Part shown: positions 38,301 to 44,300 of the stretch, in pieces
How positions within the stretch are numbered: the first letter of the stretch is position 1
Layout of the letters: every line of letters starts with the position of its first letter
From: Tubulanus polymorphus
Lineage: Eukaryota > Animalia > Nemertea
NCBI RefSeq assembly: GCF_964204645.1
Contig: NC_134025.1
Coordinates: 25,152,299-25,216,298, forward strand
Direction of reading: 5' to 3'
DNA length: 64,000 bases
Notes under the pieces: model-generated
Told to the model about the DNA's origin: nothing
The model's database searches: none
What the model saw: only the letters and a program-made list of their open reading frames with translations
Program-made: the position numbers and the translations under genes

Positions 38301-41300
38301 TATTTGAGGAAATCGAAATTTTACTTAGTTGTGCAGTTAAAGTTACCATAATGGTCGAACTAGGAAAACATCTTTTACATAAAAAAGTAAAAATTCCCAG
38401 ACAAAAAATCGGGCTCCCCTTGAAAAGGCCCCCTCAAATTCATTCTTTTTCCATCAAGATGCATTTCTGTAGGACAAAGAGCCCAATGTTTCTGATAATC
38501 TGTTCAAGAAAACACAATTTCTAGTAATCAATACACTTAATTTGTGAGGTCAGAGCTTATTTTCGAGTGTGTAATACAAAATGCATGCTTGCCACCAAGA
38601 AAACTGTCAAATTAAACTTATACGGTAATGATAATATCACAATACGACATCCAGAACGAAAATAATATCGAAATTTAGATCGGAAACGAAATATCGAAAT
38701 TTAACACTATGTATGTTTCATTATACTGAGATATTTGAATGAAAAAAAATGACACCTCAAATTGATCAGCAGAAAGGCTAACTTCTTAACGCAATTAAAT
38801 TTCAGAGATATCCAAGTTGTACGAGCATAAGAATTGGCGGGTAGAAAATCATTCTTTGTATTCACTATAGAAAACAGTTTTGTAGTATAGTTAGGTTAAT
38901 ACAGTTTATATTTTTATGGTTACCTCAACATTATATAAAAATAAAGACTTCAACAGTATCTGCTTGAGTTTTTGAATTGAGAACTGATATGAAATGTAAC
39001 ATTGAAGGAAGTGAGCGAGGAACAAACTGATATCATCGAGGAAGGGAGGGTAGTCAGAGATTACAGAGTTTCAACAAAGCTCAGATAAATAAAAAACACA
39101 GCACGAAAAGCACAACAACGCCGTCATAAACTAAAAGCATTTGCCGGTGAATTTTCTTGCGGAAGAGGAGAGGGTAATTTCTAGAAAACAGAGGGGGTAG
39201 GGGGTAATTTGTTCCGGCGGGGGAGGGGGTTTGTTACTCGATACTCGAAGCTAGCCCGGGCTACTACTGATCAATCTGCGTGTAACAAAGCGCCATCTAC
39301 GATTAACTACTGACAACAACATTATTTTTTCTAATCTATGGTGGCGTAGCGAGCGATATACGAATGTGATAATGAGTGCTGATGTTTGCATCAACTCTGA
39401 CCTCAAGGTGAGGGTTATCCAGGTCAAAGCTCACATTCTCCTTTTCCTTCGTCGACGAATCTTTATCGTCCTTTTCCGATTTGTCTTTTTCGTCTTCTTT
39501 AGCCGACGACTCCTCGTCCGACAACAAGCCGTATTGTTTGAGGAACGCTTTCTCGTCTTTCGTCGCGTGGAACGACCACGCGCGGCCGACTTTCTTGTTG
39601 GGCTTTCGTGTTTTATTTCGTCGCAGCGTAGCGTAGGGCGAATCGCTTTGGAAAGAAAAGAAGGGCACGCATTGAAGCTACATGCATAGTTAATGAGTAA
39701 TTCGAACATCATGTTTTACGCACGAAATTCATTTTTCGTTTCCGTCGGTAAAACATGTAGCGAAGAGAAATTAGATTCGATTTATCACTCGTCGTCTTGC
39801 GTAAAAACAGCACATTAAAGGGTTAAAATGTAATGAATCTGAAACAAATATATTTCACGATAAGGCGTACATGTAAGGCTGCCAGTGTTGTTTTACGGAT
39901 TACTTAAAAGGGGCTTTTTATTAGAATACGAGTATTTGAAAAAAACATAAAAATTAGTAGCGACTTTTTAAGAAGGTAGATGTTCGATTAAATCGGTACT
40001 CGCACAAACAATGCTACTGAGTCTGGAGAAATAACCTTCAGGATGAACGCACTAAACCGGATTAAATCCGATTGCTCGATAAGATTTCATCAACTCCCCA
40101 TCTGTGACCCTGGATGTAACTTTGAAAAGCAGCGATTTGAAACTTCAGCTGAGAATGAATGATTGAATTTATTCAAGCACTAATTCAAAACGCTGTAGGC
40201 TATAATTCCAAACTAGATGAAAGGAGCAGTCGGTTATGTGCTTGTTCTTTATCAAACTGTTCATCAAAAACATCTACCAACTTAAATCGGAAAATACCCT
40301 GAAAACGAAGATATAGTTTTTCAAAATATTCAAATGAAATATCGTTGAAATATTGACACCTTGATGTAAATATTTGATAATCATAATAATAATTATAATA
40401 ATATTAATAATAATAATGATAATAATAATAATCACAATAAAACAACAATTGATTTTATCTATTAATTGCATTGAAAAAAAAATGAAATCCCGACACCGAA
40501 AAATCATAATAAATACGATGACATTCAATCCAAGCAGCGGGAAATAGAGAGACAGAGTTGTGATAGTTCGTGGTGCACAGTTTGGCCGAGAAAAAATATA
40601 GCAGTTCAGCAACAGCAGCGATAATGATAATGATAATAGTGGTTGTATAACATGCCACCATATAATATATAATAGCTAGCGAAGTTGAGAGCAAATTAGG
40701 AAAAGTAAAAAAAAAGTAATACTTTGTGTGCAATTTCAATAACGGCGGAATTTAGGAAGATACGTAGCCCTGTATGGCTAACTGTAACATGTTCTCTCAA
40801 TGACTAATTGAATAAGTCTTCTCTCTCTTCAAAGATTGGCTGTATCGATTATATCATCTTGAAACCGTCGGCGGTTTATTGACAAAATCAATATGGAAAT
40901 CCGTGATTCCTTTCCTAGCGGTTATTTGCAATATTTCACCGATTTATGGCGAATTGATGGTATAGAATTTCTTGCACGCCGCACGATGACAATCAGCAAT
41001 AAATCAAGCCCTCGTCCCGACCCTCGACGACGCTCTGCCCTATACTCGTACATAAACGCACCGGTGGACAAACCGCCCGTCATTCTCCCCAGCAATTGAA
41101 CCTGAATTCACCATAGCAACAGTCTTTATATGACATCAACAGCAGTTACTGACTCAGCACCTCGCTTGTTGCAGTAACTGCATTGTCAAGAAATACCTTA
41201 TTTATACTGAGTAGGGGTGGAATTAAAAGGTATCAGGAAGCGCTTGAATTGTACTGAAAAACCGAGTGACTCACAATTGGCTCATGTCTGCTTTGTACGT

Positions 41301-44300
41301 CTGGATGTTCCACGTTTTACCAAATGAATGGGCAATTTAGAGATAGATTAATTTAGCTGATGTATTATTGACATGACACAGGACTAGACAGCATACACTA
41401 GATCAGAATTTTTCACCAGGAAAAAAGACCATAGATATTCTGCCAGTGCAATGATTCACGGCATTTTTTCGCGTTTTCTCAAATACCATACAACGAAAGG
41501 CAATTAATGATGATTCAACAAATTAAAATCAATCAGATTCCTTCATTTTTCTTTAGATTAGTCAGAGATGTGGCCAGGCACTTTCAGGTATGCGTATGTT
41601 CATCATTTCCGAGAATGAACGTCGTTTCGAAGGACGCCGAATAACATCGAACCAATGATGAGCCACTTTTGAATCTGAACAACGCCTTCAATGACATATC
41701 GCTGAGCTCTTTGTTCTCAGCGATTGCAGCGCTTGTTCGCCGCGCTACGGATACACCGACGATCGATACGAAACTCCCACCGAATATCGATGAATTTATA
41801 GCGTGTTTGTGTAATAACAGTAAAAATTTCTGAAATAGAAATCAGTTATCGGTAAACACACACGATGCAGAGCAAAATCACACGATGCATAAATATAACC
41901 TTTCATCTTTAGTGCTATGAGCGCATTGTAAACACACGCAGCAATGTGTAGGTACCATCACAGAGGGAACCAAGTCAGTTTTATGGGTTATTTTTCCCAA
42001 AAATTTCTCTCGGGATTCTGACCTCCAGTGGCATATCCTGGTACTCGGTCAACGTATCTTTGAAGCTTTGTTCTTTTTTGCCATCGTCGGGCGGTGGCAG
42101 AGTCAAGGCTTCGTCGAACGAGCGACTGAACTCGCCCGAGGCGGTGCCCAACACCAATGCGCTCTGCGGCCTCTTTTTTTGCTTGACGCTCTTTCCTTTC
42201 TCCGACCGAGGAGACATAGGTTCATTGAGACCATTAATCCCGGCAGTTGTCAATGATGCGCTGTTTAAAACAATAATTCATAAGTTGGTAATATCCATAC
42301 GATCATATATAGATTCAGACATTGAAGTTATATACTTATATAAACTGGTAAATGTAATTATACACATGGTATAGATATGAAAACATATAAAGACGATAAG
42401 ACTAGATATTAGATAAAAGTGCATTCTTTTCCAGGAGAGAGATGGTTATCATAGATACACATATTGAAGATATCTTGAGAATTCTTTTTTGTCTCATCGA
42501 ATCTTATACCACGGAATAAGTATTCTAATGAATGAACTGTAAGGTATTATGTACTATCAGGAATTTGGTGGCAAGAGAGAGAGAGAGATGTTCGAAACGG
42601 ATTGTGAATTGGACTGATAGATAACTTATTGACGTTCTTGGCAAAATAATCGATCCAGGAAAAATCTGGTATCATTGAAGCCGTAGTCATTACAGACAGA
42701 GGCTATTGACGCGGGCAATATGTTCAAGACAGAAAATCGATGGTATAAGTAAATAGTTATTTCTAATAAATGTCCATGGCATCTCTGTACCAGCTTTCGT
42801 TTAGCGAGCTCATTATACAACGATTCATTAGAACGCTTAATCATATCTTATGCAAATGTATGGTATTTCACTCCCCATAATGAATCATGACAAAATACAG
42901 GTATCACTCGACACTTGATTATAAAGGTTTTTTGTTAGAAAATGTGGATTCATCGTTTGAAAATAATCCTTCAATAGGGGATTCGAACTCGATGACACAC
43001 ACCTGCCAAGCCGGCCATGGTAGGAACCCAGGGCTGACATACCTACGAATCAGGGAACAACCGAATCTCTGATTCTATCAGGATTGAATCCCTGCCAGGA
43101 CAGATGAACGATGTACTCTACTCTTTGTATCGATCAATTCACAGATTTACGAACGTGATCAGTACGAGATTAATTATATCGCACTAAACGCACGAACGTT
43201 AATAATTACTTGATCAATTACCCCAACGCGCAGCCAATACATGGTCGTATAATCTAACCAATTTAGATCTTTTTTCAAAAATATGACTAGTGGGTATTCG
43301 CTAATGTATATTTTCGCTTGAGAGCTCGTATCGGCAATTCTTTTAGCATTTCAGGCAAGTAAAAATACTGCCACGGATCAAATAGTATATATATATATAT
43401 ATATATATATATATATATATATATATATATATATATATATATATATATATATATATATATATATATATATATATATATATATATATATATATATATATAT
43501 ATATATATATATATATATATATATATACATTAGCAGAATCACTGCTGCATGAGAAAACATGTCCTGCCTTTCGTTTAATCATAATGCACATTTCATGTAT
43601 TATCTGCCGAGTGAAAGAGTTTCGACGATAACATAAAGAGTAAGATATGTATATGTAGTGAATTTTACAGACAAATGACTCAATTTCCACGTTAAATCAA
43701 AGAGAAATGTATCCGAAACCAGTGAATTAATCAATTATGAATCGGAAACCCAAAACCTTATACAATTGCATAACTCCGAGCTCAAAAACCATAGAAAGCC
43801 ACGCGGATATTCCTGAAAGGATGCTACCATTATTACGTAAGGAGACGAATTTGTTTTTTGCTAATCTCTATCCGACATCATGTAACACGATCAAGTTACA
43901 AAAGTCGTAACAAAGAAGAGACAGCGCGCATGTTTGACGGCAGCGTCGCATTCATCGCTGATAATGCCTCGCAGCTTCCCGTCGAAGTTTCGTCAACACA
44001 GCCGAAATAGACCTAACAGTTAATGAGCAATGAGTAATGCAAAGAATTCCATGGCGACGCGACGAACAGTCGGTGGCGTCGTCGTACATGACATGAATAA
44101 CGCGAATTACGGGAGACAGGTAAGCTCCTAGAGCGACTGCGCTCGGTAACGCAGCCATCCAATTTATAGCCATCACCACCGCCATTATAGTCGGCGTGAA
44201 CTGTCTACGTTTGTACAGTTTCATCGATTTAACAGTTTCCACGATTTCGCGCGTCACCAGATTCCAATAATCGACGCAAAATCAAATGTTTGCCGTGTCG

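Follow-up and report, generated by a model that had tools for sequence, protein, structure and literature searches.

The stretch of the Tubulanus polymorphus genome analyzed here (64,000 nt in full, hereafter the window) carries, on its minus strand, the F37C4.5-like gene of this ribbon worm, which encodes a protein with DUF4140 and DUF4139 domains and contains two neighboring alternative exons, 6a (42023..42260, 238 nt) and 6b (39402..39645, 244 nt), that are spliced exclusively. The gene is identified by the peptide of exon 7 (36287..36526), which is 100% identical to the RefSeq 'protein F37C4.5-like' of T. polymorphus, by the order DUF4140, coiled coil, DUF4139, with both Pfam domains above the curated cut-offs, and by a match to the TIGR02231 (MuiA) family (E 1e-121).

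The exon pair was proposed in an earlier reading of the letters alone (hereafter, the original prediction), and the following of its details were recovered from the sequence: the sizes of 6a and 6b, both of the form 3n+1, the C that follows the acceptor AG, the GAG|GTCAGA ends and the quoted peptides, as well as the end of exon 5 (45218..45357), TA|GTAAGT at 45218, where the cumulative coding sequence of 956 nt leaves phase 2. Both alternative exons start in phase 2 and end in phase 0, the phase in which exon 7 begins. Including both or neither breaks the frame, as claimed: the 5/7 joint creates an immediate TAG, and 6a joined to 6b runs into a stop ten codons into 6b. The 5-6a-7 and 5-6b-7 builds both stay open as far as the natural stop codon and encode 625 and 627 amino acids, respectively. 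A scan for hidden exons (open, phase-2/phase-0, AG..GT) left three introns empty and, in a fourth, turned up a single weak AT-rich candidate. Because the scan finds no credible further phase-2/0 exon, and because RNA-like joints link both exons to exon 7, we consider that 6a and 6b are not chance open frames.

These joints come from run X4. Four runs of one study cover the stretch, none of them recorded as RNA; run X4 was taken as RNA because GT-AG joints occur only there, with runs X1-X3 showing none on the gene. In the run X4 contigs, GT-AG joints connect exons 1-2-3-4-5, 5-5b (an optional exon), 6a-7, 6b-7 and 7-8-9, and loose contig ends indicate 5→6a, 5b→6a and 5b→6b. Contig 29 begins at the 6a acceptor and is continuous into exon 7, and contig 27 carries 5b, 6b and exon 7 continuously (depths 18.1 for 6a and 7.7 for 6b, not used for isoform ranking). 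Among the junctions listed in the original prediction, 42023-36526, 39402-36526 and 45218-42260 were all seen in run X4 as GT-AG joints or loose ends, and 42023-39645 (6a→6b), expected to be absent, does not occur among the run X4 contigs shown, contigs being prone to lose rare forms. The proposed junction 45218-39645 (5→6b), on the other hand, was not seen: 6b is entered from 5b in run X4 and in 3 of 3 RefSeq 6b models.

RefSeq holds isoforms X1-X5 for Tubulanus (XP_074653797-831), namely, three 5b+6b isoforms and two 6a isoforms, one of the latter with 5b, and X1-X13 for Lineus longissimus, ten of the 6b type and three of the 6a type; models with both or neither of the two exons are absent (0/5 in Tubulanus, 0/13 in Lineus). 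Thus, 6a and 6b are neighbors with the same phases and shared flanks, used one per transcript, as mutually exclusive exons are, and the run X4 contigs together with the 18 nemertean RefSeq models make it practically certain that they are spliced exclusively. Several points weigh on the other side. The evidence is a single RNA-like run of one study, in the form of contigs, which would miss rare 6a+6b or 5→6b forms. The RefSeq evidence may not be independent of the same run. Furthermore, an AG at 39677, which precedes the 6b acceptor by 32 nt, would permit in-frame 6a+6b, so that the frame barrier between the two exons is not absolute; this AG scores -1.4 as an acceptor, compared to 5.8 for the true 6b acceptor, and its use was not seen.

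The automatic RefSeq annotation already contains 6a, 6b, two optional exons, 4b and 5b, and a short 6b donor. Among the papers listed for F37C4.5 (incidental, judging by their titles), DUF4139, TIGR02231 or nemertean alternative splicing, none on the splicing of this gene was found; proteomics supplements may contain more on F37C4.5. Both isoforms are, then, already annotated, yet undescribed in the literature found.

The remaining exons, all on the minus strand, are delineated mostly by run X4. The coding part of exon 1, from the ATG, lies at 55289..55509 (contig 9 and joint 54549-55289) and starts DUF4140; exon 2 (54303..54549), exon 3 (51538..51755), which encodes the coiled-coil hairpin (helices 97-143 and 171-225 in the structure model), and exon 4 (48788..48917) are bounded by run X4 joints, as is exon 5. 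Downstream, exon 7 is supported by run X4 along with the RefSeq identity, and exon 8 (35799..36032) and exon 9 to the stop (35303..35512) by contig 25. Exons 6a and 6b rest on the sequence, contigs 29 and 27, respectively, and RefSeq. Run X4 also includes an opposite-strand spliced contig at 50796-52104 (plus), with a GT-AG joint 50796-51844 and depth 10.2, the intron of which spans exon 3, indicating an antisense transcript. A short dispersed repeat matched by many unrelated contigs adjoins exon 3 (51430-51488), and a long (AT)n tract (43386-43530) lies in the intron before 6a. An Rfam scan of 35000-56000 detected no family.

The original prediction missed exon 4b, exon 5b and an in-frame shorter 6b donor (39435, used in RefSeq isoform X3). 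Exon 5b (44460..44507, 48 nt, phase 2/2) is supported by the run X4 joint 44507-45218, by loose ends at 42261 and 39646, and by RefSeq isoforms X1, X2, X3 and X5; it comes ahead of 6b in all the Tubulanus 6b forms observed and is optional before 6a. Exon 4b (47248..47331, 84 nt) is included, in frame, in RefSeq isoforms X1-X4 and skipped in RefSeq X5 and in run X4. It duplicates the 28 codons at the end of exon 4 (10/28 identical, 0/2000 shuffles) and is added after exon 4 instead of replacing it. The Lineus 4b peptide maps to Tubulanus 4b (0/100 shuffles), and 4b alone matched in this way: the Lineus-only cassettes (after 6b, ahead of exon 7, a set of three following exon 4, one following exon 2, and the 5b-like exon of Lineus) had no match above shuffles in five Tubulanus introns. 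At the 4b point, Lineus has three further short alternatives, and Branchiostoma has an unrelated insert.

How is one exon chosen over the other? The original prediction described the exclusivity as frame-enforced, which holds insofar as the frame can remove wrong products after splicing; the exon choice itself needs another cue. Products with both or neither of the exons probably are sent to decay by the broken frame. It has to be considered whether frame plus decay alone, with an unregulated choice following a plain duplication, could account for the splicing step. This simpler account draws on the frame arithmetic, on the identical GAG|GTCAGA donors of 6a and 6b, the only two in the gene, and on the long introns (2.4 kb between the exons), so that no steric block would operate; it is hard to reconcile with the predicted stem described below, the 5b-6b coupling, the undetectable 6a/6b homology and the unused in-frame escape acceptor, and we consider it improbable.

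The search for docking/selector RNA pairings suggested in the original prediction yielded a candidate stem bracketing 6b, whereas no competing stem for 6b held up. Arm 1 (41924..41983, minus strand) lies 40-100 nt past the 6a donor and arm 2 (37110..37160, minus strand) some 600 nt ahead of the acceptor of exon 7; the predicted duplex of 41983-41924 with 37160-37110 (-41.7 kcal/mol, seeded) would loop out 6b and so likely favor 6a. Comparable stems arose in 1/285 local dinucleotide shuffles, in 0/300 when restricted to the 150 nt after the 6a donor, and in 0/40 in another set, and this is the only one among 10 intron pairs in the gene that reaches 1/50 shuffles; the arms are not dispersed repeats within the window. 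A second stem, pairing the region before 6b with 37079-37037 (-35.7), failed the shuffle test (22/40). We regard it as an even call that the stem bracketing 6b selects 6a. What tells against a regulatory stem is that it is predicted from one genome, that testing 10 pairs brings the corrected p to ~0.04-0.2, and that its ungapped score was attained by an initial, crude set of shuffles (maximum 44 vs 41). Moreover, a competing selector was not found after 6b (-21.7; 35/40 shuffles), and the one upstream stem (after exon 5, 2/40 shuffles) predicts 5→6b, a junction not seen here.

A second possible cue is the TGCATG hexamer, an RBFOX-type site. One copy lies 12 nt ahead of 5b and another 41 nt ahead of 6b, the latter together with the weak in-frame AG at 39677..39686 (minus strand); none of the 9 other acceptors has a copy within 150 nt. 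This placement would fit coupling of 5b and 6b in Tubulanus, not in Lineus, where the 5b-like exon accompanies 6a only, so that the coupling by TGCATG fails there. We mention joint RBFOX-type repression of 5b and 6b only tentatively, as a rather doubtful scenario.

In the Drosophila gene serpent (srp), exons 4.1/4.2 are controlled by bidirectional RNA pairing, in which the first exon is promoted by a stem that the inter-exon intron forms with the intron preceding the next constitutive exon (PMC4691838, in the passages on this pair), and a general model of RNA pairing in exclusive splicing has been outlined (in the relevant part of PMC6071210). The Tubulanus gene is like srp in having two exclusive exons and the same downstream stem geometry; unlike in srp, only the downstream stem appears here, as a prediction, the upstream partner being weak and pointing to an unseen junction.

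The exchanged segment is not a linker between domains, as the original prediction had it, but an insert inside the DUF4139 match (246-625). In the structure model of the 5b+6b isoform, a beta-sandwich core and a long helical hairpin are modeled with a predicted local distance difference test (pLDDT) score >85, whereas pLDDT drops below 50 at 331-362 and 374-421, so that the insert, hereafter the loop, is modeled with low confidence and is likely disordered, in agreement with the original prediction. The basic-then-acidic polarity noted there for 6b is real; as a contrast between the exons it falls, because 6a shares it, and 204 of the 239 family loops of 35-140 amino acids have the same polarity. 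A signal-like or membrane stretch was detected in none of 7 proteins, which have acidic N-termini and a top 19-residue hydropathy of 0.74-1.43; the protein is therefore likely cytosolic. The searches turned up no solved relative: the fold of the whole protein gave matches to coiled coils or weak beta-sandwiches only, and the C-terminal domain alone had no fold match at Z 8 or E 0.001, its best weak match being the mu-homology sandwich of the AP mu subunit (Z 6.6, root-mean-square deviation 2.9, 83 aligned; Foldseek E 0.005, TM 0.31). An Atlas search returned the family itself only. The TIGR02231/MuiA proteins have the same domain set, again with no solved relative; the name MuiA comes from Pseudomonas biofilm work (PMC7603352), which, in the part concerning MuiA, is uninformative on the animal protein.

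Both alternative loops are old, as had been predicted. Tubulanus and Lineus longissimus represent two nemertean classes, and both exons are present in each. The start of 6b is identical in 49 of 50 residues between them, compared to 225/315 and 186/226 in the cores, and 6a is identical to its Lineus counterpart in 39 of 74 aligned positions. Farther afield, 6a aligns with one of the two loops of Owenia (score 88, 0/500 shuffles), with the blocks SP, KKRPQS and S-x-DEAL kept, and 6b aligns weakly with the other (1/500 shuffles) and with a Macrostomum loop (0/500 shuffles). The 6b motif R..SFH is found in 14 of 259 distinct loops, including that of Macrostomum and six further loops, of which the five checked are closest to Clonorchis. 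These wider matches come from pairwise tests; as a lone search query, 6b retrieved only Tubulanus and Lineus among 108 candidates.

The proposed origin of 6a and 6b by exon duplication finds no such backing, their similarity being no better than that of shuffled sequences, which reached the observed score in 144/500 cases for protein, 74/200 for profile and 302/500 for DNA. There are hints of duplication, nevertheless, in the same phases, the same rare donor 9-mer, the similarity of the Owenia a and b loops (7/500 and 16/500) and the resemblance of the Owenia b loop to both, and a very old duplication is plausible, if only slightly favored. Like the clusters of mutually exclusive exons in myosin heavy chain genes, which have been gained in several bilaterian lineages, 6a and 6b are neighboring exons with the same frame and splice pattern and similar length; unlike the myosin exons, which are similar in sequence and encode folded parts, 6a and 6b are unalignable above chance and exchange a disordered insert (compared with the sections of PMC3912159 on these clusters).

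The same slot is exchanged across the F37C4.5 family. Among the 24 species with several models in the matches listed (120 of 248), 16, from five phyla, combine an identical downstream core with differing loops, of which there are as many as seven versions; the swap thus recurs in protein models of other spiralians (an annelid and molluscs), where the original prediction had advised looking for it, and also in those of acorn worms and a jellyfish. There are two versions each in Tubulanus, Lineus, Owenia, Glandiceps, Ptychodera, Liolophura, three Haliotis species, Arion and Aplysia, three in Bradybaena, four each in Gigantopelta (P0054-P0057), Biomphalaria and Clytia (array records P0108-P0112), and seven in Patella vulgata (P0059-P0065); Biomphalaria has at least four, with a fifth only in read-through models. 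Only one loop class was found in three Branchiostoma species, Hymenolepis and Hydra (5/24), and in Ephydatia, Macrostomum and Rotaria (3/24), the loops vary between paralogues, on different cores. The count omits species with one model, the read-through models (P0072, P0074, P0080, P0090 and P0100), a second Haliotis asinina gene (P0093, P0121) and a short Ptychodera form. Most molluscan versions are less than 30% identical to one another. In a quick tree, the cores sort broadly by animal group, and the loop-bearing genes are therefore mostly orthologues.

Species other than Tubulanus are known here from protein models alone, so that their exon structure is inferred, and one could argue that only one exon is real or that the isoform sets elsewhere are annotation artefacts or paralogues. 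Such an argument can invoke the models P0072, P0080, P0090 and P0100, which string several loops together, and the different cores in Ephydatia, Macrostomum and Rotaria. For Tubulanus it is largely refuted, given that both exons are spliced in run X4; elsewhere, the within-species cores are identical, the accession series look like isoforms of one gene, and the strung models show the loops in tandem. Taken as a whole, this explanation is highly improbable. In the read-through models of Biomphalaria, the loops follow each other in a fixed order with the acceptor changed at the joint, an arrangement that, judged from the proteins, would fit tandem exons unable to join in frame.

What could the loops do? 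A Ras switch-I-like motif is present in 12 of the 259 distinct loops, among them those of the sponge Ephydatia, the hydrozoan Clytia (isoform X3), the limpet Patella (isoform X1) and the rotifer Rotaria (P0114, P0165, P0110, P0104, P0062, P0132, P0167, P0169, P0175, P0187, P0217 and P0300); the chance of such a motif in the first 114 loops was 1.7e-5. In a search of the PDB with the Ephydatia loop, all 60 matches listed were to Ras (best E 0.0045). One of the 259 loops, P0300, contains, directly before its Ras-like segment, a Rac/Cdc42-like one, and the best PDB matches of the whole P0300 protein were Rac1 and Cdc42, within the loop (E 0.011). The GTPase-like motifs were first spotted by eye, and the E-values are modest. 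A Rab-like motif in P0277 was discarded, with no Rab among the PDB matches to E 10.

We suspect, with somewhat more confidence than doubt, that the protein-level function of the loop is the display of short binding and phosphorylation motifs with switching of partners, because the loop, despite its low pLDDT, holds 49/50 identity in 6b, above that of the cores, because the R..SFH motif and the 6a blocks recur in other species, and because the slot has recognizable GTPase-like motifs elsewhere in the family. As background, KRIT1 is a Rap1 effector. The C. elegans protein F37C4.5 is one of four proteins that co-purify with KRI-1/KRIT1, according to the relevant passages of PMC6470173. Weighing against partner switching are the lack of a known binding partner, the absence, in 6a and 6b, of a PDB match and of a GTPase-like motif, and the worm data: in the same passages, F37C4.5 knock-down left apoptosis unaffected, with no RNA interference phenotype, and the protein also features in unrelated proteomes, an aggregate list (PMC9475316) and a TORC1 list (PMC9036118), as far as the entries cited go.

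Alternatively, the loop might be a mere spacer, basic then acidic, the versions of which tune length, charge or membrane affinity, with the motifs irrelevant. The polarity in 204/239 loops and the low identity of the molluscan versions agree with such a role, as does the pattern SF[RK][RK], which we take to be PKC/MARCKS-like, in 31 of the 259 loops. The conserved start of 6b, the 6a blocks and the exact GTPase-like motifs in four phyla, however, need sequence-specific selection, which makes a pure spacer quite unlikely.

In a more far-reaching alternative, the loop would be a bait or decoy that imitates host targets, such as GTPase switch regions and basic protease sites, with microbial cleavage or modification triggering the protein intracellularly. 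The arrays of four to seven barely alignable loops in molluscs and Clytia mirror the 5-12 exclusive bait exons of TEP genes; like the bait arrays of TEP2, CD109 and alpha-2-macroglobulin, they would consist of tandem exclusive exons of variable length and composition that encode an exposed loop conserved at the C-terminal end only, and both kinds of array are seen in the same snail (from the TEP sections of PMC7016707). The Ras-like motif includes the bond, Tyr32-Asp33, at which a Vibrio protease cleaves, in a paper that gives the Ras and Rap1 switch-I sequences (PMC6254334, passages on the cleavage site), and P0300 joins Rac-like and Ras-like segments in one loop. On the other hand, Tubulanus 6a and 6b have no such mimic, nor does the whole window contain a Ras/Rac-like motif; the conservation of 6b far exceeds that of the core, which does not suit a fast-evolving bait; there is no known effector output; and the Rab-like case failed. 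Unlike TEPs, the F37C4.5 proteins have, in the sequences checked, no signal-like stretch, A2M Pfam match or CGEQ thioester motif, fold searches gave weak matches only and, as far as tested, the fold is another one; some of their loops, again unlike TEPs, resemble GTPase switch I. A bait role seems unlikely to us.

Elsewhere in the window, a flavin amine-oxidase gene, presumably LSD1/KDM1A-like, occupies 55822-61100 (minus), its transcript ending ~270 nt upstream of the first run X4-covered base of the F37C4.5-like gene. Two adjacent single-exon basic helix-loop-helix genes, which we assume to be achaete-scute-like, lie at 20896-21675 and 24315-24863 (plus), and a tRNA-Ala(CGC) gene at 31206-31278. 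Three tandem intron-free open reading frames of ~470 amino acids at 69-1499, 3171-4634 and 6035-7435 (minus) match the model of the bacterial MurL peptidoglycan epimerase (E 1e-24 to 6e-27), though falling well short of the cut-off of that model, and possibly represent a gene of bacterial origin expanded in Tubulanus.

We assign the Tubulanus gene to the F37C4.5 family and its exons to the mutually exclusive pairs, and not to homologous duplications, TEPs or GTPase mimics. The chain that we favor, albeit with modest conviction, is that of an old and regulated choice between two versions of a motif-display loop, by which the protein would change partners: one core would be combined with either of two predicted disordered loops, by splicing 6a or 6b, the predicted stem around 6b would tip the choice toward 6a, frame-breaking products would decay, and the loop would serve as an interchangeable display. 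More speculatively, and in our view improbably, animal F37C4.5/MuiA proteins could be intracellular decoy hubs, in which a tandem exon array, retained or expanded anew between cnidarians and hemichordates, inserts one of several bait loops, some of them copies of Ras and Rac switch I, into a fixed scaffold, sequestering GTPase effectors or sensing microbial enzymes, with 6a/6b as an RNA-stem-controlled two-exon form.

Taken alone, the exon pair is an ordinary, already annotated switch. The wider significance lies in the family-wide design, one slot that is swapped in five phyla, in up to seven versions, in a widespread protein of unknown function, with some of the loops resembling small-GTPase switch regions. 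It brings to light a large exon array beyond those of arthropods and TEPs, along with a spiralian candidate for a docking stem, and offers the first testable handle on the role of F37C4.5/DUF4139 proteins.

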